64,000 nt of DNA, taken from contig CM059430.1 of assembly GCA_030390025.1 (NCBI GenBank), positions 3,968,001 through 4,032,000 of the forward strand. The letters run 5' to 3'. Position 1 is the stretch's first letter, and each line of letters starts with the position of its first letter. The position numbers and the translations under genes were made by a program. Below the pieces are notes generated by a model that was not told where the DNA came from, searched no databases, and saw nothing but the letters and a program-made list of their open reading frames with translations. Positions 8,731 to 64,000 of the stretch are shown piece after piece. This stretch comes from Squalus acanthias (lineage: Eukaryota).

Positions 8731-9617
8731 TCTACTTTTCTTTATGGACTTTGTATAGCGTGACGGAGTGTGTTGAGAGAGGCATGAAGCATGTGGATTA
8801 GACTGATATTGTGTAATCAGTAGGAGTGAGAGAAGTATGAGTGAAAAAGGAGGATCAGAAGCATGGAGTGAGCGGGAGAAGAAAGTGATGAGTTCATAGT
8901 AATGTCTTATTTTTACCTAACAAATTTGATCCCAACATTTATGTATAGTTTTCTACAGACCCTAAGAGGTGCTGCAATGGTAGGCAACATCTGTACCTCA
9001 GGTTTTAATTATTGGCTAAAATGGATGATGGTATTGATTATTGAGTCGGGCAGATAAGACGGGCGTTAAGTTATGTGAAACTTGTTGAGCAATTGCCTGA
9101 AGGGCCGGTCTTCAGCAAGCTTGATGTTGAACCCTGATTAAATAGGTAGGTTTTTCTTTTTAAAAAGCGAAATAATTTGTTCTCGTGACACTCCCTTACA
9201 CTAAATGCAGAATCCTCGAGTCGCCCAATAGTCTCATTGCACCATTTCAATTGACAGCAGTAAAATTAAACCTTTATTTTGTTCCCTAAACCAAAATATA
9301 TCTAACTTTAGCAATTTTTTTTCCTCATCTAAGCCCACCTCTTCTGGGACTATTGTCTTAACCAATTTTACAGCAAACTTCATTCAATACCATACACTTT
9401 AACTGCCACATTTTTGGACAATTTAAACCATATTAAACATTCTAATTGTCACTGCATTTTGGCAGGGAAGACTTATTTCAAAGGTAAAAATGACCACCAC
9501 AGAACGACCCCACAATACCAGGTATTTGTTTTGGATTTACAATATGAGGAGGATTTAATGATTGCTGTCCAGTGTGGTTAGAGAAGGTCTGCATTGAGAA
9601 GATGTTGCTTTCCTTAC

Positions 9618-10114
9618 CTTATATAGTTTCAAGCTGGCCTCATGCCTCGAGTTGACAGTGTGCAATCGCAGCTTCTCAATGCTGTTGGTGTAGTAGTCGC
9701 ATGCGTTGCATTTCAAGTGCACTGGGTTCCCAATGGCCACGCATTTCAGTCGCCACTCGTTGGCCTTGCCCCCTTCCTTGATGTGTGCCACGAGCTGGTA
9801 TTTTTGCACGTGCTTATCTGTCTTACAGTGCAACTGGAAGTTGGCCTTGAGCTGGGTGTTGTAGCGGCAGAGCTTACACTGGTAGGAGTCACCAATGACT
9901 GCTTTCCACTCCTCCTCGGGCAGGTGGCGCTCAATGTTCATGTGCAGACTGAGTGTCTCCAGGTTGTCTGTAGTGAATCGGTTGCAAACCGCACACTGAA
10001 AAAGCTTCAAAGAAGGGTCATTCGTGGTTGTGAACGTTTCGCCAAGGTTCATGAGTTCTTCTGACACCAGCTGCCCGCCTCCCAGTCGCATGTCAAGAGG
10101 AATCTCACCACCAA
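9618..10114 (-). CDS. ZFHX3: ZFHX3 second coding exon (497 bp, C2H2 zinc fingers)
   Basis: Acceptor TTTGTTTTCTGCAG|TT (G+TT = Val, phase matches the upstream exon) and donor AAG|GTAAGG. Encodes [21 protein letters not shown]...[25 protein letters not shown]...HEASLKLYK. 2653+497 = 3150 nt, an exact codon multiple. Confidence 0.96.
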
Positions 10115-11029
10115 CTGCAGAAAACAAAGAATATAAAGGAAAAATGAAATGCTTAGCAACAGCTCCAGAAAGGATGAAAAGTGATGTTCATACCCTGTAA
10201 GATGTTGACCTGATAACAAACTCGTTGATCTGACAGTCTGAATTACCAGTCTGAATTCCTCTTCTAAAGCTAACATTGACAATACTGCATCTGTTAATGA
10301 GGTCAAATCTACCCACCAATATCTGGGGATAGTATTTGCAACTTGGAAGGGCTTTATGCAAATGAAATGGCAAATCTGCTGCAATATTCAACTGCTGGAG
10401 ATGATAGTGACAGACGTATATTCATTTGATTTGTTGATAGTAAGCTGTGCATAAGAGTCTGCTTTAGGCTGATGTCCCTGAGTACAAGACTGAGATGGTC
10501 AAAACTCATTTTACTTGTGATCAGTTATTAGCCTTCAGGGACAGTGATTCCTATCAGCTAATGCCAGATTAGATTTAAACTTTAGCCTCTACAGGTTTCA
10601 AAGCTAAACATGCAGTGCGCACGTAGCAATAGAAAACATGGTCAAAACGTGGCCCATCAAGCTCAAAATGACTTGCATTTGTCTCTCCTGTGTCAGCAAT
10701 TTTAATAGTTGCACCATTTTAGAATGCAGTTTTAAAAATAAGATCCATTATTCATTTTAATTACTGTCAGCACCCAGGTATATTGATGATGGTGACCATT
10801 TTGGTGTCAGCTTAAAAAGGGGTTTGCAGTAGATAATGATCCTGTCCTGGAATCTAACACTTTTACAATTAACTGGGCTCCATGATACAGCTCCTGTCAA
10901 AATCAATTCAAACACATAACTTTTTTATCCCACCACAGCAGGTACTTTATATACCTAGAATTTTCTACATATTCCCCATTTTGTTGAGGACTGCAAGATT
11001 TCCCCAATGTATTAGTGATGATGAGGCCT

Positions 11030-22275: not shown

Positions 22276-24930
22276 ATGATGCCTCTTGCTAGTTTGAGCT
22301 TATATTTTTTTATTAAAAACTGTATATGGTCTCTCCCCCCCCCCCACCGTAAAATATTGATAAAAAATGACCAGTTTGAGTAATATTTACATCAGCAATA
22401 AATGCTTATTTTTCTTGAAGATGGCTAAAGTCTGTACTTAAACAGAAACTCTTAGGATTTGGGCAATGCTGGCAAGGTTGCATTTATTGCCCATTCCTAC
22501 TTGCCCTGGTTGTGGTGGTGGATCCTCAGAGCAATTGTTTGTACAACTGCTTGCTTGGCTTGCTTGGCCAATTCAGAGGGCATTAAGAGTCAACTATGTA
22601 GTGTGGGACTGGAGTCCCATTCAGGCCAGATATGGTAAGGATGGCAGGTTCCCATTGCTGAAATTTAATTTTAAACAACCTAAAAAACAGTGATAGAGAG
22701 CTCTCCCAAAAATTATAATGAAACTAACTGACAGATTTGTAAGGAGTTCACCCCAGATACTCATGACATGCCCAACTCTGGATAAGAACTTTCTAAACTC
22801 TGTGGGGGAAAAAAAGCCTTTCTTCCAATTTTTAGGGGGGGACATGCATTGAAGATTTCTTTTTCTCATTATTACTAAATGTACTTAGACAAGATACAAG
22901 GATTTGGATACAATACATTATTGAACTTCTTATTGCCATGATATTGAGGCTCTAGTAGAGTTCAGAACAAGGAATAAGCCTATCGTGGTAACTTGATATC
23001 TTAAGTTACTAGGATAGGCTTAGAGAATTAGGGTTAATTGTTTTGGAGAAACATAGGCTACGGGGAAATACCATTCAGATTTAAAAATTTATAATAAAAG
23101 GGCTGGTGCAGTAGATTTGGAGAAGATATTCAAAATGATTATGATAATAGGACTCATCGAGAAAATACATGAGCAAAAGAAAACCCCTCAGATGTTATTT
23201 CTTCTCTCAAATTGCCGCTCTGGAACAGGCTACCAGCACACGGGGCAAGTACAGATGCCCTGCAATTCTTTCAGAAGAGATTTGTAAAGTTCCTTCATGA
23301 GATGAACACTAACATTACAAGGAGGGCAGAGGTATGTGTTAAGTAAGATTGCGCAGTACTGCATCGTGAGCTATGGTCTAATGGAACTTGCTCAATTACC
23401 ATATGGAATTGGGGATGAATTACCCAGAGTTTCTTCTGAAAATGTTTCCCTTTTTTTTTTGCCTACCCATGAAGATACTATTCTTAAAGGTTAGGAAGAT
23501 GGTGAGTTGAGTTCTGCAAATGGAGCAGGCACTGGTGGACCGGAAAGTCTTTTCACATCCTTTTTTTTGATAGCCTGACTTAGCTTACATGTGAGCATTT
23601 TACTGACTCACAGGTTAATACTAACTCTTCTCACCTATTCAGAAATGTTGGGGAATACTGAAGGGCAGTGATGCACCATCTCACTATTTTTCAAATAAGC
23701 CTAAAGGTTTTGTTTGATCCTTCTAAGTCAGACTTTTGAGCAAGATATTCAAATGAAACTGCCATTATCCAATCAGGCTTGCTTTAGACTGAGGCCTACT
23801 AACTGGTGGGTGTAGTGTCACCCAAGAAAAGCCTTTGTATGACATCAATTACTCTGTCTTGTGTCATAAATTATTCAAATTCAAATTATCGAGCATTGTA
23901 AAATTGGATTAGGTCCTGTAGATCAGGTTCATCTCAGACTTTTAGGGTTAGGATTGTTTGCTCAAGGCCAGAATCTAAACAGGCCAACGTTACAAATGGA
24001 TCCGGAACAGAACTATTACTGTTTTTCGTGATGCATCAATATTCTTCCGTTACTAACTCATTCTATATTTTATGATACTTATGTAGTTGATACTTTTACC
24101 TACTAGTTAGCAACTTCCCCTCTCCCTTTGCTGGTTACTGGGGGAACTCTCCTCCAAACTTATCAAGTGAAGCTTGAAAATTGTTTTTTAAATAATAAAG
24201 AAAATGCAGCGTCATACAGTCTCATAACAAAATCAAATTTCACATTAAAATTAATGGGAAACTTGTTGATAATGGTGAAACAGCCAAATACACTGGAGAC
24301 ATTCTGGATGAAAATCTCAGTTAAACTATAAAAAGCTGGTCCAACATTCTTTTTAATTCAATTGCGTTTGATCTAGTCTTACTTTAAAACATGGTAAACT
24401 TTTTCTGAATACCCTCGTTACTGTTCACTTTATGTATTGTCTGTCTATCTGGGGACAAGTACGCCCGGCTGATTTACAGTTAACAGTTAAACTGTATAAT
24501 AGAGGTCATCATATCCCTTTATAATGCAAACCTCAATTTACATCACTGCTATTTATTCAAAGACTATAAAATCTAGTCTTTTTATGAGAAGTTTAACATT
24601 TCACATTCAGTTTTAATATTTTTTTTTATATATAAGTGCTATCATGGACATGCTCCAGGGCAATTATCACAAAAAAAACTTTTGAAACCCACCCAATTCA
24701 AGGACAAACGATTATCAGGCAGCCTATTAGACTGAGTGGTCATTTCTCAGTGCAGGGTTCCACTGGAATCAACCCTTTTATAAGCTTATATTTCCTGTAA
24801 CTTGTAAACATGTATGTTAGTTTGCATGGCATTTTGTAGCCTTCGGAAATATATGCATCAATGTATTGCACAGTAGTTAAGGAGAACTATGTGGAAAATA
24901 TTTGAAATTAATAAAGTTATTATCTATTAC

Positions 24931-27583
24931 CTAGTGCAGGTGCAAGCGCTGATACTGCATTTGTTGGGTCCAGTTGGAATCCACCCAGCATAAACTGTGT
25001 GTCGGTTGCATTTTCCAGCTTCAGGCCAGGGAGGTTCATGTTCTGGGCCAGGTAGTACTGGTAAAGCTCAGCCTCTGCAGGTGCCAAGTTGCTGAGGCCT
25101 AAGTGTCTGTTGTGCTGAATCTGGTTCATGTTCTGCTGGAGCAGCATCATGTTGTGCATGTGCTTCTCGCTGGTCATATGAATGCGCAGGTTCCTGGCTA
25201 CATTCGTTTCGTAGTCGCACACCTCGCACCGCCAAGTGGGTTTGGTTTTTGGTTTGGTGGGCGAGGAGGCCCCGCAGGTGCTCATACTGGCGGCGGCGGC
25301 GGCAGCGGCCGCCACAGCCGCTCCAGCAGTGTGGCTGAAAACTTGATCGCCCCCGCCGTTCTGTAGGTTCTGCATGTTATTGAGATGCTTGTCAGACTGC
25401 ATATGAATACTGAGATTGCCTTTGGTTGTAGTGGAGTAGTTACACACCTCACATCGGAAAGGCTTGTAACCACATGTATAGCTCTCGCCCCGGGCCAACC
25501 GCGGGTGAGGTTGCCCAGATTTGCAATACACACATGAGCCACCGGATTCGGGGTGTTTTTCCTTCATGTGGGCCTCCAGCGTCTGCTGGTACTTGTAGTG
25601 CCAGTTACACTTTGGACACTTCAAGGTCTTGCATGAGTTCCGAGAATGCATCATGGTCATGTGCCCACCAAGGGAGCGGGAGGAGCCCAGGACCGTGTCA
25701 CACTTCGGACACTCAACGCTGCTTCCGGATGAGCATTCCCCACCCCCCAGGTCGCAGGGAGTGCTGGTATGCTGGTGATGGGAGGTATAGATTCCTTCCT
25801 CGCCATCGACAGGTTCATTTGGTTCAGGAGCTGTGGCACTGTCTTTATTGGCACTTTCATCTACAAAGTCCGTCCTATTACTCTCAGTATTACCGACACT
25901 GCTGTCGCCGCTTGCACTGTCGCTTGACAAGCTCACTGCATTCCTCCCGTTTGCACCATCGAAAACAACAAAGGAAGAAGTAGAAGAAGAAGAGGTGCCC
26001 CTTGGAGAAGGGTTCAGCACATTAGGCATTAAAGGAGATTTAGAAATGCTTTGGTTTGAGAGAGCGAGTTCCTTGCTGCTACATGCATCACCCTCAGGGT
26101 CTTCCTGGGGCTCATCATCATCATCCTCATCCGACTCGTTTGGGAACAGTTCTTTGCACTCCTCATCTTCCTCTGCTTGTTCAGCAGAGTCCGCCTTTTC
26201 TATGAGGCTACTGTCAGCGCTAAACTCTCCACTGGCTTTTTTCTTCTCAATTTCCATCCCCAAATCCTTGCTCTCTGACATTTTGGTAGGCCCGGAAGCA
26301 AGGTGGCCCAGAGGGACTGAGGTAATTGGGGTCTTTAGGGCTGAGCTCGTCAACCCTCCAAGGTTCAACAGAGCACTTTGTGCCAGCGGGATTGAATGAG
26401 GCTGCTCAGCTGCACTTGTGTTACCTTCAGAGTCTTTTAATAAAGCCAAACCGGCCTGGACAGCCTCATCACCATCAACATGGATTCCACTAAAAGTACC
26501 GTAGAAGTTCTGACCAGGGCCAATGAGGTTAGCTGTGGAAACTAAAGGGTGTTGAAAGTTTTTGTTTTTTGGTTCCAGAAAGCTTATAAGAGGTTCCTTG
26601 TCTTTGCCTATCCCTTGGATGATAGCAGACACGTTCTTATTACTTAAGAGCTTGTGCTCCTCTTCACTAAGGGTCATTCGGTGGTCATGCACAGCATGCG
26701 TTACAAATGACCTCACATATCCAAAAGACAACTTGCACAAAAAACACATTAAAATCGGCTTTCGTTTGCCATAGAGCACGAAACTGTCAAACTTAGACAA
26801 GTCCACATTGTTAGGGACATCTTTGGATACACAAGAGTTTTTGGCAGAGCCATCACTGTTCAGGTAATCCTTGTTGCTTTTGTGTCGCACATCAAAAACA
26901 CGGAAAGTGTGCAAGACAGGACTGATGCCTGTCAGTGCTGAGGTATTTGGGAATGCCTGGTCAGAACCAAACCACTTCCCAAAAGATGAGGCTATGTGAA
27001 AAGTGTTGATGATCTGTGGGTAGACAGAGACGGATGCTGCGGAGGTGGACTCCCCTTGCTTATTCCCAGCGTTGGACATAGAGTTCATGAACAATGCTGG
27101 GAGAACACTACTGCCACTGGGCCCTCCAGACTGGATACTTTGCATTAGCTGGTTCACATTCTCTACGATGTAGGCAGAGCCATCTGGCTGATAGACGATC
27201 TCCCCAGCCAGGTTCTCCACATCGCTTTCCTCTGCCTCGCTCATTTCACTGTCACTTTCCTCCTGGAGGATCTGAGGGTGGGAGTTCGGGCAATGGTGTT
27301 CCATGTACTTTTGTAAACTTGAGAATGAGGATGAGCACTCGTTGCAGCTGACCTCCTTCGTGGACAATGAGCTGTGTGAAACAACAGCCGCTGCAGCAGT
27401 CTCTGAGCTGCACTCGTTGAAGGGTGCCCTTAGGTTCTCACACGGGACGCAGTTCTCTCGTGCAGACTCCATTGAACCAGCTTTATCAGAGACCTGGGGG
27501 TTGGATTCAGTCCATTCCTGATGCTGGGAGGTGCTGCACCCATCCTCTTGCCCAGTGATGGTAGGGGAGTCACAGGTTTCCAT
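24931..27583 (-). CDS. ZFHX3: ZFHX3/ATBF1 first coding exon (codons 1-884 plus 1 nt; N-terminal C2H2 zinc fingers, acidic and Ser-rich tracts, poly-Ala)
   Basis: 887-aa ORF with ZFHX3-type segments ([100 protein letters not shown]). Donor CTAG|GTAATA after 24931 (phase 1). The last residues of the ORF (GNR*) are intronic read-through. Confidence 0.95.
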
Positions 27584-27629
27584 AGTGATGGCTACATGAG
27601 CGTTTCATTGCATCCAGTCCGGCAGGGGC
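27584..27629 (-). other. ZFHX3: 5' UTR portion of the first coding exon of ZFHX3
   Basis: On the minus strand a pyrimidine-rich acceptor TTTCTTTTATGTTTCAATTTTTAG| (AG at 27631-27630) lies 46 nt upstream of the ATG. Confidence 0.85.
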
Positions 27630-28955: not shown

Positions 28956-29172
28956 TGGTCATGATGCGGAGATGCCGGTGTTGGACTGGGGTGGACAAAA
29001 ATGAGAAGTCGCACAACACCAGGTTATAGTCCAACAGTTTTATTTGAAATTACGAGCTTTCGGAGCGCTGCTCCTTCGTCAGGTGAAGTGAGGGAATACA
29101 AATCGGCTCCGAAAGCTCGTAATTTCAAATAAAACTGTTGGACTATAACCTGGTGTTGTGCGACTTCTCATT
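28956..29172. mobile_element. Palindromic Penelope-like pLTR insertion, family A, nested in a CR1
   Basis: 69-bp perfect inverted arms 28998-29066 and 29106-29174; tail 28956-28997. 14-bp direct repeat TTGGTATTCAAAGG at 28942-28955 and 29173-29186. CR1 ORF2 sequence resumes across the insertion. Confidence 0.85.
29050..29086 (-). ncRNA. Minimal hammerhead ribozyme motif
   Basis: Minus strand reads TCAC-CTGACGA-A-GGAGC agc GCTCC-GAA-AGCT-C-GTAA: perfect 5-bp stem II, CUC cleavage triplet, one mismatch in stem I. Confidence 0.72.
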
Positions 29173-30076
29173 TTGGTATTCAAAGGGATCTGGGTGTCCT
29201 TGTACACGAATCACTGAAAGTGAGTATGCAGGTACAGCATGCAAATAGGAAAGCAAATGGTATGTTAGCCTTTATTTCAAGGGGGTTGGAGTATAAGAGT
29301 AAAGAAGTCTTACTGCAATTATATAGGGCCTTGGTAAGACCACACCTGGAGTACTGTGTACAGTTTTGGTCTCCTTACCCAAGGAAGAATATACTTGCCA
29401 TAGAGGGAGTGCAACGAAGGTTCACCAGACTGATTCCTGGAATGGGGGGGATTGTCCTATGAGGAGAGATTGAGGAGACTAGGCCTATATTCCCTAGAGA
29501 TTAGAAAAATGAGAGGTGATCTCATTGAAATGTATAAAATTCTTAAGGGGCTTGACAGGGTAGATGCTGGAGGATGTTTCCCCTGGCTGGGGAGTCTAGA
29601 ACTCGGTGTCACAGTCTCAGAATAAGGGGTCGGCCATTTAGGACTGAGATGAGGAAAAATTTCTTCACTCAATGGGTTGTGAATCTTTGGAATTCTCTAC
29701 CCTAGAGGGCTGTGGATGCTCAGTCGTTGAGTATATTCAAGACAGATATTGATAGCTTTTTGGATACTAAGGGAACCAAGGGATATGGGGATAGTGCGGG
29801 AAGGTGGAGTTGAGGTTGAAGATCAGCCATGATCTTATTGAAGATCAGCCATGCTCTTATTGAATGGCTCGAAGGGTCGAATGGCCTGTTCCTGTTCCTA
29901 TTTCTTATGTTCTTATGTTAAAACAGCAAACAGAGGAATGTCATACAAATGTGTTCAATGGTCACCCATTAATGTTGCCAGTGATTTCTAAGCAAATAGG
30001 ACTAAAATGATCACTAAAGAAAAGGTAAATATCTCTTTCATCAGCTCTCCAACGGTCAAGAGAAACTGAACATATC

Positions 30077-45073: not shown

Positions 45074-45324
45074 CATGGCAAGTAAGCAAGTACCTTCCTG
45101 GCTGACTTGATTAACTTTATCACACCTCGGCAGATAGTCAGGATGATTTAATTTAGTGGTCTGCAATTGTAAGGTACACATGCTTTGTTCTCTATCTATA
45201 TATGCTTTGGCGATTCTGTATCTAATTTACTTCACCTGAGGAAGGGGCAATCGATAGCTCCGAAAGCTTGTGATTTCAAATAAAACTGTTGGACTATAAC
45301 CTGGTGTTGTGCGACCTCTCAATT
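45074..45324 (+). mobile_element. Solo (non-palindromic) family A PLE pLTR fragment with hammerhead motif at 45232-45273
   Basis: 45224-45324 matches the 63-kb right arm. Motif TCAC-CTGAGGA-A-GGGGC aatcgata GCTCC-GAAAGCTT-GTGA. Direct repeat AAGTAAGAAAAC at 45062-45073 and 45325-45336. Confidence 0.78.
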
Positions 45325-58854: not shown

Positions 58855-60146
58855 TGAGAAATGTTAACGCCTGGGATATTTTGATCAGGTAACATCTTGT
58901 GTAATACAATTACAACAGGAGAGAGTAAAAATTCCTGTCGGCAAATTTTACGCAACAGCACTTAACATGCTCATACCACATTCCTGTATGTTCTGTACTT
59001 ATGCAAGTATTAACATAAATGGGTTAACACCTGCACAAGAACGTCACACACAAAATGTAACACAAACACATTAAGCAGTCATATGTAAAATTTGATCAGA
59101 ATTTCTAATCTAATATCTACTAATAAACAATTTACTATGTTTACAGCAGTGACAGAAATAGCCTCAAAGTTATTAGCCAATAGGGAAAATATTTCTTTTC
59201 CAGCAACTTTGGTAAGTAAAGCCACCCTTTGTCAGCCCTTTAAAGATAAGTTTGACAGTAATTCTTCATGCTTCATATTCATCTTATGAGTCGATCTTCA
59301 CATTCCACGTCGATTACAGCCATCAACTGGCATGTATTCTATATCTAAAAACAGTTAAAAGCTGTCATTAAATAAATTTAAGAGTTCAGTTGTAAAAAGA
59401 TGTTCTTATATAAACTAATGCCTCGTGTCTGCTCATCTGGCAGAAGATAAGTACCTTCCTCCTAAATTGGCAGTGAATGAGTTTTAAAAATTTGTTACAA
59501 CACCTGCAAAATATAAATCATCAGAGTGTTGTGGCTAGCAAGTCAGGAATTAAGTGAAGCATCACTCGAGAAAATTCAGTACACATAAAGTACAGCATTT
59601 TACTAAACCGCAGCATACCAGGGCCGACCCAAGGATTTTTCCTTTCTATCTCTTCTCTTCAGACTTGCTGCAATGTGTCCTGCAGATGTTGCCGTTAATT
59701 CATCAGTCCAACTCCTGGAGGAGTTATTGCAAAGCTGAGCACGCAGCACAGTTATGTACAGACAAACCCACAAAGACACACAAATACAACAGTTTGTGTG
59801 TACGCTGACAAACACACACTCATTTAGTTTACCCACAAACATGATTAAAGGTTTACAGCTTAGCACGCATTTAGCAGAAAATAATAACGGCAACAAATTT
59901 GATAATGAAAGGGTTGCCTTGTATGGTGGGTTGAGAACAAGGAACGGCTTTGGGACAGCACAAGACTCAAGCCGGGAAATGATAACCCCCTCACCCAATT
60001 CCCATCAACTTCCCACACCTACACAGCCCTCCTTGGACAATCTAAGTCTCCATGGACGTCAATAATGCTCTTCCTTGTCTGACCTACCAGGAGATTCACT
60101 TAACCATGGGAACCGGTGCCTAGCCAGTCAACTCTTGTGGTATTCA

Positions 60147-60382
60147 AAATAACAACAGAAAACGCTGGAAAAACTCAGCAGGCCAGGCAGCATCCGTGGA
60201 GAGAGAAAGAGAGTTAACGTTTCAGGTCGATGACCTTTCATCAGAACTGTTCTGACGAAAGGTCATTGACCTGAAACGTTAACTCTCTTTCTCTCTCCAC
60301 GGATGCTGCCTGGCCTGCTGAGTTTTTCCAGCGTTTTCTGTTGTTATTTCAGATTTCCAGCATCCGCAGTATTTTGCTATCG
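60147..60382. mobile_element. Palindromic Penelope-like pLTR insertion, family B (101-bp arms plus 33-nt tail)
   Basis: Arms 60147-60247 and 60249-60349 with 2 mismatches and a 1-nt centre. Tail 60350-60382. 14-bp direct repeat TCTTGTGGTATTCA at 60133-60146 and 60383-60396. Confidence 0.85.
60249..60283 (+). ncRNA. Minimal hammerhead ribozyme motif, family B (mirror copy on - strand at 60212-60248)
   Basis: GTT-CTGACGA-A-AGGTC att GACCT-GAA-ACGT-T-AAC. The minus-strand copy reads AGTT-CTGATGA-A-AGGTC atc GACCT-GAAACGTT-AACT. Confidence 0.7.
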
Positions 60383-62654
60383 TCTTGTGGTATTCATCTT
60401 GAATCAGGAGTCTAAGAACCCAGTATTGCAGCTAATGGGCCAATGGGCAGTAACTATTTTTTTTAAAGAACAAATCCTCTTAATACTTCAAATTCAACAA
60501 GAATTCTAATATTTATTTCACACTGGTTTTTTTTCTCCAAAATGTATACTAACCATTTTTTTTTCCTGTAACACCAATTGGCTGCATAAGGACTGTGGAG
60601 TTACTCTTTCATCTAAAATATTGGGAGCTGACAAGGGCAATAAACACAAGGAAAGATGTAGTTTTCCTGCCCTCTGGCTCTTCTATTGTTTCCAATAGGA
60701 GAAGAAAAAATATAGGTCTAATTATAAACTGCAGTAAAAGACCAATGCAGTTAAACTCCTGACTTCAGCACCCAAGCAGCTGGTCTTAAATACCTAGCTA
60801 TTTTTAGATAATAGATATATTTTTTCTTAAACTAAATGCAGCCCAGGAATAACAAAGAGTTAATTCAGTTTGGAGGTTGTTTTAAATAAAAATAAAACTT
60901 CAGAAGCTGTAAAAGCAAAATATTTTTTCAACACTTAAGCAAACTCATTTTGTGTAATATCCCCTGACAGTATAAAAGAACTTTTCAAATTGCTTTATAT
61001 AAATAATAAACCCAAAGATCACTTCACTTATTGCCTTATTTCCTCATCATCATTTTTTAAAGTAAATCCTATTCAGTTACGTGCAACATTTACACTCGTT
61101 TCTCTGTAGATAAAGTGAAAGGGTAGGAGAGTGGGGGGTGGGGGGGGAGATGATTTTCTCAGTCCTGTGAGTTCTTCACACTGCATAATAGGGGTTCAAA
61201 TCTCTTGTAACTTGCAGAAAACTTCTGAGAATACACACACTCTTAAGGCTTTCTCTAGTTGTAAGCCACAACACACCAGGCAATGCTGGAATATCAAATG
61301 TGATGGCCCCCTGCTTTGTTTAGGGAGAGCTCTGTAATAGCAACCTTTTAATCTTGGTGGTTTTGTTTAGGTGCTGCATATTCATTTCAAGGATTTCTCT
61401 CTCTTTTTACTACTCTATACATATGGTTCAACCAGGATGACAAGCGACACTAGCTCCTTTTATATTGGTTTCTATTGCGCTTGTGCTGCTGGTTCCTGAG
61501 GTGCCGGTCTTGCCCAACCGACAGCAACCCCAGAGTGAACTTGTTGGATTTGCTGAAGACCGGGGGTGGGGGGAAAAAACTGGTCACCCTGCGTCAACGA
61601 ACCCAGCAAGCTTACTTTGGATTGCTGCCCCAAGACTCGCATGTCGGGAGCCAGTGGCACTCGCACAGCACAAAAACAACCACCAGCTGTTGTCCTGTAC
61701 ACTTTAGGAGTGCAGCCAGAGGCAGAAACAAGGTTCGCCCGCCGTTGGCTGCAGTCCTGTGAGTGAGCAAGCCGAGGTTTGTAGACTCACAGAATTACGG
61801 TTCGATAAAGCTTACAGGTTAAGTAGCGGTTTCAGTGAAATAAACCTGAGGAGATGGTCCTGTGTCCCTGCACACCGTGGGGTACAATTTCAGGCAAGCC
61901 CACCACCCACTCGACGGAAGTGGTTGGAGTCCCAAACCATTCTCATGCTCGGGCTGCACTTAAATATAATCGGCGTGCTGCTGGTGTTAAGTGAGAGCTG
62001 ATAGGCAATTTGACGATTGGAGCAGGCGGGGGGGGGTGGGGGGGGGGGCGGGGGGAGGAAATCCAGAGCCTCTTCTGCGGAGCCAAGCTAGCCGCAGTAA
62101 GTAAAAGGTGATTACGGGGATGGGAGTTAGACTGTTGATCATGCAATGGGAAGAGTTGATTTTTGTGGGGCCAGAGCCTTTTTTTAAAAACTCGATACGC
62201 CCATTGGTAGCTCAAAATTACATCGGGGTGCTGTTACTATCACATGGGCTGTTGCGGCGCCTGCCTGTTTCTGGTGGCACCCGGGTCCGCCATTTTAAGG
62301 TCCCCGCCAAAATGGCGGCAGCAGGAACGGGGCAGGCAAGTGCCATGCCACTTTTTTTTTTAAACGGTGAGAGTGTAGTGCATGAAGTTCACTCTCCAGA
62401 AACAGGATCTCAGAGTGAGTGAAAACCATCACCTGTGAATGACGAGTATCTTTGAGGTCGCCACAGTTTTCCCATTACCATGAAAAGGTCCGACTGCAAC
62501 AACATGCTCAGCCTTTCAGTACAATCGTGAATGTTTCAAATGCAAGTTCAAGTTAAAAAAAAAGCTCAGAGAGATGGCGTAGCTTTGCGTTCAAGGTGTG
62601 GACAGAATGTCACATTACAGTAGAATTTGGTCACAATTGACCAGACTAATTAAT

Positions 62655-62742: not shown

Positions 62743-63166
62743 GGATGGCACAAAGAGGAAAGTGAAATAATGTGGGTTCTACTGTAGAGCAATTTTCCTC
62801 ACAATTTCTTTTTTTCCCCCCTCTTTGCCTCCTGAACTCTCAATGCTGGAGTATGATTTCGCAGTCCCCAGCAACTTCCCCACCCCCGTATCACACTCAA
62901 GTGATCATTCTTCATCAGTGGGCCTGGTGTTGATGGGAGTCATAGCCCGGCCTAATTCTGTCTTCACCCAACATCTACAAGTGCACTTTCCAGCAGGGTG
63001 TCACTGGATGGTGATCAATGGTGGGAATCTCGGCTAATTTTCATTCGTCCTTAGTTCAGGAACATTGAGACCAGTTGTGGTGGCCCACCGCTGCCCAATG
63101 TGAGATCAGCAATCTCAGCACAGACCTGTGATCAACCCAGGAATCTTCCTGGTGGAGATGTTTTCA

Positions 63167-63391
63167 AAATTGAGAGGTCGCACAACACCAGGTTATAGTC
63201 CAACAGTTTTATTTGAAATCACAAGCTTTCGGAACTATCGCTCCTTCCTCAGGTGAAGTCCAATTTACTTCACCTGAGGAAGGAGCGATAGTTCCGAAAG
63301 CTTGTGATTTCAAATAAAACTGTTGGACTATAACCTGGTGTTGTGCGACCTCTCAATTTTGTCCACCCCAGTCCAACACCGGCATCTCCGC
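63167..63391. mobile_element. Palindromic Penelope-like pLTR insertion, family A (95-bp perfect inverted arms plus 30-nt tail)
   Basis: 63165-63259 is the exact reverse complement of 63267-63361, with a 7-nt loop. Tail 63362-63391. Direct repeat GAGATGTTTTCA at 63155-63166 and 63392-63403. PLE assignment rests on the hammerhead motif and the inverted-arm-plus-tail architecture. Confidence 0.85.
63270..63307 (+). ncRNA. Minimal hammerhead ribozyme motif (mirror copy on - strand at 63219-63256)
   Basis: TCAC-CTGAGGA-A-GGAGC gata GTTCC-GAA-AGCT-T-GTGA: stem I, conserved core, stem II, and palindromic AGCT in place of helix III. Confidence 0.75.
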
Positions 63392-64000
63392 GAGATGTTT
63401 TCAGCAGAGAAACCTTTACGATGACTCATTATGCAATGAGCCACAATTCAATAAGCCAGTCACTTTCTTCAGTAACTGTTACTGCAGGTTAGTGGGGTTT
63501 CGATTAGATCAGTCATTTAGAGGGCGGTGTGAATACTCTCACCTAATGGACAAGAAGATAATAAAGTGGTTTAGTATTGGGAGATGACGTGTGAACTGTG
63601 ATAATGGACTGGGGCTGATTTTTTAAAAAGTAACCATCAGATAGCAAGTACATGGAGAGGGAAAAATTGGGAATTATAAATAATGGGGATGACTTTCATC
63701 TCATTACCTCCTCCTGGTGTACACTGAAAAATGGGAGGTACTGATGCAAAGATAAAGCAGCTGCTAGCCCCGCCCAATTTACCGCTGCTTTTATATAGTC
63801 TGATTTTTGGGTGGGAAGGAACTTCATGCGTAAATCTTTATTTCATACCAATCGCAGAGACTCACCAACTTCTATCATTGAATCAGATATCCTCAGCAGC
63901 ATGCTAAACGGTGACTTGAAGTAAATAGGATTACAGCCAATCATGCTCAGAGGTGAAGCTGCGAGCAAAATTAAGCGAGCAGATATCCCCCAATGGCACA

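Follow-up and report, generated by a model that had tools for sequence, protein, structure and literature searches.

We analysed a 64,000-nucleotide stretch of the Squalus acanthias genome (the window; contig CM059430.1, positions 3,968,001 to 4,032,000 of the forward strand). It carries large minus-strand exons of a ZFHX3-like zinc-finger gene (24923-27604 and 9558-10187; PF24056) and a palindromic insertion that lies upstream of the larger exon by about 36 kb (Table 1; window coordinates throughout). The two arms of the palindrome (63165-63259 and 63267-63361, 95 nt each) are 100% complementary and separated by a 7-nt spacer, and the 12-bp direct repeat GAGATGTTTTCA flanks the hairpin at 63155-63166 and 63392-63403. 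A first-pass annotation, made from the sequence by itself, had described mismatch-free 95-bp arms, a 7-nt loop, a 30-nt tail, and a 12-bp target-site duplication, and we found all of these in place. The inserted DNA is 63167-63391 (225 bp), and a comparison of empty-site contigs with the window demonstrated that no target DNA was deleted; the proposal of an ORF-less 225-bp inverted pLTR plus tail was upheld. Because the 12-mer occurs once at the empty site, the left arm owes its outermost 2 bp to the target, which has 2 nt of microhomology with the element there, and the element-derived part of this arm is 93 bp. Counting from the CUGA of the hammerhead core described below, the tailed arm reaches -15 and is joined to the other arm via 1 nt of microhomology, while the element 5′ end of the left arm falls at -7, which is likely the transcription start. 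The predicted RNA fold of the hairpin has an energy of -187.5 kcal/mol (z = -31; 0/200 shuffles were equally stable). We additionally observed, at 63154-63160 and 63384-63397, that the first bases of the target are complementary to the tail end, so that a small 6-bp hairpin spans the right junction; this may be chance or may have guided priming.

Table 1. Features of the insertion, in window coordinates.
Feature	Position	Strand	Basis
Left copy of the 12-bp target-site duplication, its last 2 nt extending the left arm (microhomology)	63155..63166	+	Repeat search; single copy in empty-site contigs
Inverted tail-less pLTR arm; element 5′ end at -7 from CUGA, the modal arm end	63167..63259	-	
Minimal type I hammerhead motif, minus-strand copy; core C 63252, mirror of 63270-63307	63219..63256	-	Descriptor scan
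"Loop", ordinary pLTR sequence found only in the tailed arm	63260..63266	+	
Direct pLTR arm	63267..63361	+	100% identical to the pLTRs of L291
Minimal type I hammerhead motif, plus-strand copy; predicted cut after 63303	63270..63307	+	Descriptor scan, fold, alignment
PLE "tail", ending 3 nt before the parent ORF start codon	63362..63391	+	Comparison with L291
Right copy of the 12-bp target-site duplication	63392..63403	+	

The insertion is recent and not fixed, because the site is empty in 4/4 runs (X1, X5, X6, and X9; 18 runs were listed), which bears out the recency claimed in the first-pass annotation. Each run yielded one contig that bridges both flanks with one 12-mer; when the flanks were aligned to the contigs separately, the left-flank alignment ended at 63166 and the right-flank alignment began at 63392, the two sharing 12 bases of the contig. 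X1 is possibly the source sample and so would not be independent, X5 is another sample under the same organism label, and X6 and X9 come from other organisms. The filled junction was absent among the contig pieces listed in any of the four runs, and contigs drop alleles; the likeliest candidate reading of this absence is a heterozygous or private insertion. Of the adjoining DNA, the unique flank 63404-64000 is kept at roughly 94-97% in contigs of two other organisms and has GC-box, CCAAT, and TATA-like words near 63770-63940, making it possibly a candidate regulatory stretch. No RNA dataset was listed as containing this right flank, a result that carries no information on expression.

The parent of the insertion was traced by extending the tail outwards to copies that continue into an ORF. 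We found that loop, right arm, and tail (63260-63391) are identical at 132/132 positions to three pLTRs of one locus, L291, which lie 3,139 bp apart and flank two 892-aa ORFs without stops. The subfamily of the focal copy forms tandem arrays with a 3.14-kb period, and 892-aa ORFs are intact in four of the six subfamily loci examined (L289-L291 and L294), with early stops in the other two. In Pfam searches, the 892-aa ORF matched RVT_1 with 35.1 bits against a cut-off of 29.6, and GIY-YIG with 22.8 bits against 22.6, the latter a narrow pass over the C-terminal part only. In an older subfamily, pLTRs that are 90-92% like the focal arm enclose an intact 891-aa ORF. The parent ORF had no match among solved structures in the PDB. 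A CX4CxxC linker and core cysteines are visible in the parent ORFs; the linker is given as a criterion for the Neptune or Nematis type in the available part of PMC8557442 and points to a parent of one of these types. Together, these loci and their copies display a single ORF with reverse transcriptase and GIY-YIG domains, matching tandem pLTRs, an inverted 5′-truncated copy, a tail at one end, and a target-site duplication of variable length.

We conclude, with near certainty, that the focal insertion is the product of an endonuclease-bearing Penelope-like element (PLE) and a new example of a published layout. The PLE origin suggested in the first-pass annotation is thereby borne out by an intact parent with an identical pLTR. 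An assembly artefact, or a non-autonomous DNA transposon of the MITE type whose terminal inverted repeats are long, would share the palindromic shape and the target duplication, and the lack of a filled junction among the listed contig pieces is compatible with the same pair of readings. However, the sequence matches the pLTR of an element with reverse transcriptase and GIY-YIG domains, the ends are asymmetric with a tail on one side, the duplication ranges over 10-15 bp, and the centres vary, in place of the symmetric inverted repeats and fixed duplication length of a transposon; nor would an artefact be accompanied by a duplication of 12 bp, the modal length in the family. The identity to the L291 pLTRs refutes the MITE reading, and we give the pair almost no credence.

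A tandem parent of the L291 type is apparently active. L289 (G000:C2:211213566-211223009), L290, and L291 are tandem arrays of up to at least 4 units with near-identical intact 892-aa ORFs, and are candidate active source loci of this retrotransposon family. At L076, a locus of the older subfamily, 44 nt of the 3′ UTR just past the ORF stop are 82% like the arm of the second hammerhead family described below (E 4e-8) and are preceded by an apparently decayed hammerhead; this stretch is possibly a relic of an older pLTR.

Genome-wide counts were made with exact sequence patterns in the 3.7-Gb genome, whose repeats may be of a cartilaginous-fish kind. At least 2,043 head-to-head junctions have both arms reaching the 5′ side of the hammerhead, and a 27-mer of the focal subfamily has 2,431 matches, many of them as inverted pairs separated by tens of bases to more than 2 kb. 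A hammerhead-core pattern, covering sequence only and without a stem check, matched 127,883 times, compared with 508 for the reversed pattern. This is about one match per 29 kb, and among 100 matches listed nearly all fall into two sequence groups. The focal insertion does not stand apart as an element of its own kind: inverted PLE insertions, with thousands of copies, grade continuously in length, and it belongs at the short extreme. Other copies lie in the same window. A hammerhead hairpin of the second family at 60133-60396 has 101-nt arms (60147-60247 and 60249-60349, 98%), a tail to 60382, a 14-bp duplication, and a motif that uses ACGU and different stems. About 8/10 truncated copies of this second family also begin just before the core, as judged by eye. 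The focal family is represented by an older hairpin at 28966-29177 (-), lying within another repeat, whose arms are unequal and whose duplication measures about 13 bp, and by a single tail-less arm at 45221-45324 (+).

The hammerhead motif that had been noted on each strand is present on both (Table 1). The plus-strand motif has a 4-bp stem I (63270-63273/63304-63307), CTGAGGA at 63274-63280 with an extra A at 63281, a 5-bp stem II including one G-U pair (63282-63286/63291-63295), GAA, and AGCT at 63299-63302. Scanned with a minimal-hammerhead descriptor, the window contained 5 motifs, and its reversed sequence contained 0. An Rfam search of the hairpin gave no hammerhead match at E<=10, as expected for a motif without helix III; Rfam miRNA-hairpin models were rejected as shape matches, with scores below their gathering thresholds. 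Across 17 chosen motifs from two families, the core was invariant and 96.3% of stem cells were paired, compared with 21-47% in slid controls. Stem I/II covariation, whose absence the first-pass annotation had named as a refuting result, was observed in this alignment as changes on both sides in 8/11 stem pairs, including AGCU versus ACGU, although these represent few inherited events, mainly between the two families. The reading of the motif as a minimal hammerhead with a palindromic AGCU is thus supported by covariation across families. Both AGCU and ACGU are self-complementary, and helix III of the focal motif would be possible only in trans, via AGCU. The AGCU duplex contributes only -2.5 kcal/mol, and the predicted dimer of minimum free energy is not the active form.

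The first-pass annotation had further proposed that the product of transcription in either direction could act as a co-transcriptional switch, a reading that we weighed for a ribozyme in transcripts of the host. In its favour, neither strand has lost the core, and the position of the insertion upstream of the large ZFHX3-like minus-strand exon makes read-through possible. However, the arms are head to head, so that read-through on either strand makes the antisense arm before the motif, and among the prefixes long enough to form stem II, 7 per strand, none gave it a probability as high as 1e-15 (a calculation of equilibrium rather than kinetics). An isolated arm, by comparison, folds stems I and II with a stem II probability of 0.99. 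In published assays, as far as the available text of each report goes, metazoan minimal hammerheads were not cleaved as monomers and only weakly as dimers (PMC4209133), and the hammerhead of an Anolis PLE cleaved only with the protein of the element, whose insertion does not need cleavage (PMC11167929). The empty site in 4/4 runs, moreover, gives no sign of conservation. The order of the arms, the blocked prefixes, and the published assays together make the switch very improbable, and this part of the original proposal was not supported. We instead predict from the folding models that the hammerhead is locked in the hairpin as an inert passenger on either strand.

To what extent the hairpin records its own formation is best seen across copies. 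Exact direct repeats of at least 9 nt were found in the own flanks of 43/50 hairpins (mode 12 bp, range 10-15 bp), compared with 0-2 when flanks were swapped; these lengths are from exact repeats, and mismatch-tolerant lengths ran about 1 nt long. A tail is present on exactly one arm in 73/77 head-to-head pairs, and the ends of insertions fall into two clusters separated by about 40 nt. The 5′ ends of arms, counted with a reference panel filtered of inverted arms, lie within -12..+5 of CUGA in 39/53 arms of a tail-selected sample (mode -7) and in 16/56 arms of a core-selected sample. None of 42 copies continuing into the ORF ends in this zone, and longer arms dominate in the focal copy's own subfamily. 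Position -7 is 30-32 nt after the TATA-like TATATATG in 29/29 arms examined and has initiator-like sequence. We consider the pile-up of arm ends likely to be run-off of cDNA at the 5′ end of the RNA, with the start site placed from motifs only. Evidence against run-off comes from the ORF-continuing copies, from the longer arms, and from the internal, TATA-less promoter of Drosophila virilis Penelope (PMC2377424). Arms starting at the ribozyme cut site were rejected as the main class because only 2/53 arm ends are near the cut; likewise, 50 listed of 855 very short hairpins had no clear end pile-up there, by eye.

The same start-like bases raise the alternative that the hairpin is itself a small divergent promoter, from whose centre, given an internal promoter, RNA would run outward on both strands with a foldable hammerhead and tail and could be remobilised in the manner of a SINE. 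The internal, TATA-less promoter of Drosophila virilis Penelope, as described in PMC2377424, is a precedent, the initiator-like bases at -7 are kept in both arms, and a lone arm folds stem II readily. What makes this reading improbable is that the focal hairpin lacks the TATA-like box which longer copies in several subfamilies retain at about -31 relative to the start, and that junctions vary from copy to copy, so hairpins are not copied as units.

The remaining question is how the second arm arises, and we weighed an account in which the two arms are primed separately, their RNA templates having one source or closely related sources, against a fold-back (self-primed) copy of the first arm with later gene conversion, hot-spot mutation, or central deletion. 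Fold-back has been proposed in print for inverted Penelope junctions of Adineta vaga (PMC3846280, available text). Many junctions in our data are perfect or near-perfect palindromes, as fold-back would produce, and the focal copy fits it, with identical arms and the tailed arm the longer. For this reason the focal copy alone cannot tell separate priming from fold-back, and the discrimination comes from other copies. Among 95 scored pairs (99 were found, 4 were dropped for not having one tail, and the sample pools differently selected loci), the tail-less arm lies at least 5 nt further upstream in 19, by up to 664 nt, the tailed arm lies further upstream in 23, and the two are within 4 nt in 53. 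In the 19 pairs with the longer tail-less arm, neither arm contains the other. Neither can then have been copied from the other, barring a subsequent loss of the centre, and such a loss from a palindrome could account for unequal arm ends as well.

The alleles carried by the two arms bear on the same question. In the older subfamily, the arms differ at one non-CpG family allele in 491 hairpins, compared with 2,404 that are concordant G/G, whereas one-arm transitions at neighbouring control sites (one control site each) number 17 and 6. The tail is on either allele (14 versus 11 of 26 scored, from 30). The young subfamily of the focal copy (24 pairs, 48 arms) has the same sequence context without the G allele, so the site is no A-to-G hot spot there, a point against fold-back. 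Arms are nonetheless mostly concordant, as fold-back would have it. Discordance was below that of random family draws (8/77 observed versus 36.8 expected), and in the young subfamily only 1/24 pairs differ in loop 2, though several variants exist. Among hairpins discordant at one site, a second polymorphic site was discordant in 2/14 scoreable cases, indicating that the templates are not independent draws. We also considered that discordance could trace back to a single parent whose 5′ and 3′ pLTRs differ, and rejected this because no parent locus examined, in a small sample, had the A/G difference between its tandem pLTRs. Taken together, the 19 non-containing pairs and the 491 discordant hairpins favour separate priming over fold-back. 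We lean modestly toward two separately primed arms and regard fold-back as the less probable account, though a serious one. Our confidence in the statement as a whole, that this is a recent ORF-less PLE pLTR insertion with separately primed arms and inert hammerheads, is likewise only a little better than even.

Separate priming would proceed as follows. The endonuclease of the element would make cuts 12 bp apart in the two target strands, and each of the resulting ends would prime its own short cDNA on element RNA. The start of one cDNA would be the end of the tail and that of the other a point about 35-40 nt further upstream, which would match the two internal starts described for the Anolis element. 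Each cDNA would run off near the 5′ end of the RNA, about 31 nt after the TATA-like box, and the two would then be joined by 0-4 nt of microhomology or by short filler. The product in a read-through transcript would be a 93-95-bp double-stranded RNA stem and no ribozyme. The Anolis PLE protein, modelled as a dimer, is reported to cut and extend both strands and to start at two internal sites that bound the tail (PMC11167929, available part), and the two clusters of insertion ends about 40 nt apart match these two in vitro initiation sites. Short repeated or templated filler, such as repeated GAAGGT-like units, is visible at the junctions of L001, L004, L126, and L147; its sequence suggests template slippage at the RNA end.

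Extending separate priming to the group, we tentatively propose, at somewhat less than even confidence, that PLEs integrate by double-ended priming. A dimeric particle would make one cDNA per target end, each started at its own boundary of the tail and sometimes from two different RNA copies, and run-off resembling strong-stop synthesis would make a 90-100 bp hairpin the commonest product. A still-active family could in this way have seeded the genome with thousands of perfect double-stranded RNA stems and more than 100,000 hammerhead cores.

The layout and the motif are already published (PMC3846280, PMC8557442, PMC4209133), and we did not find the arm-allele and arm-end statistics in the available portions of the literature. 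Nor did we find a published two-template model for PLE hairpins, or shark PLE hammerheads, in a search confined largely to openly accessible articles. As far as their available text goes, the inverted-pLTR-plus-tail insertions of Arkhipova et al. 2013 (PMC3846280) and Craig et al. 2021 (PMC8557442) share with ours a 5′-truncated copy next to an inverted one, a tail of 30-40 bp confined to one end, a target-site duplication round the whole unit, tandem parents, and TATA- and initiator-like motifs in the pLTR. In contrast to those insertions, the focal unit is shrunk to 225 bp without ORF sequence, and such minimal units number in the thousands. Our copy statistics also differ from the self-priming proposal for Adineta (PMC3846280) in favouring separate priming.

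The hammerheads resemble the metazoan PLE minimal type I motifs of Cervera and de la Pena 2014 (PMC4209133). As described in the available part of that paper, they share the core, an extra nucleotide between 9 and 10.1, G10.1-C11.1, a short helix I, a missing helix III, and palindromic 15-16 positions; the focal motif differs in its stem II of 5 bp with one G-U. The same source notes opposite-strand hammerhead pairs 100-700 bp apart and gives 4,000 motifs for coelacanth and 9,000 for Xenopus, numbers far below the 127,883 core matches here, although the descriptors differ and the comparison is not like for like. The Poseidon element PAc of Anolis carolinensis (Frangieh et al. 2024, PMC11167929, in the part available) shares the two internal reverse-transcription start sites that bound the tail, the use of both target strands, and insertion without need for the hammerhead. 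The PAc hammerhead overlaps the start codon, with initiation 111-118 nt inside the ORF, whereas the focal family has its hammerhead about 90-125 nt before the ATG and a tail that stops at about that codon; the focal parent also has the CX4CxxC linker, unlike Penelope/Poseidon. Non-LTR retrozymes (bioRxiv 10.64898/2026.07.22.740005, available text) are likewise non-coding, hammerhead-bearing derivatives of PLE pLTRs. They are tandem direct repeats with a hammerhead per unit, while the focal unit is an inverted pair and unable to form a tandem dimer, and we do not assign it to that class.

The locus itself is ordinary, and its value is as a handle on the open origin of inverted PLE structures. 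Craig et al. 2021 (PMC8557442), in the available part, describe as undefined how PLE structures of the tandem and inverted types arise. With an intact parent identical to an unfixed insertion, and with thousands of minimal products in the same genome, separate priming versus fold-back becomes directly testable in this family. Hypothetically, perfect hairpins of this kind could also supply double-stranded RNA in host transcripts.
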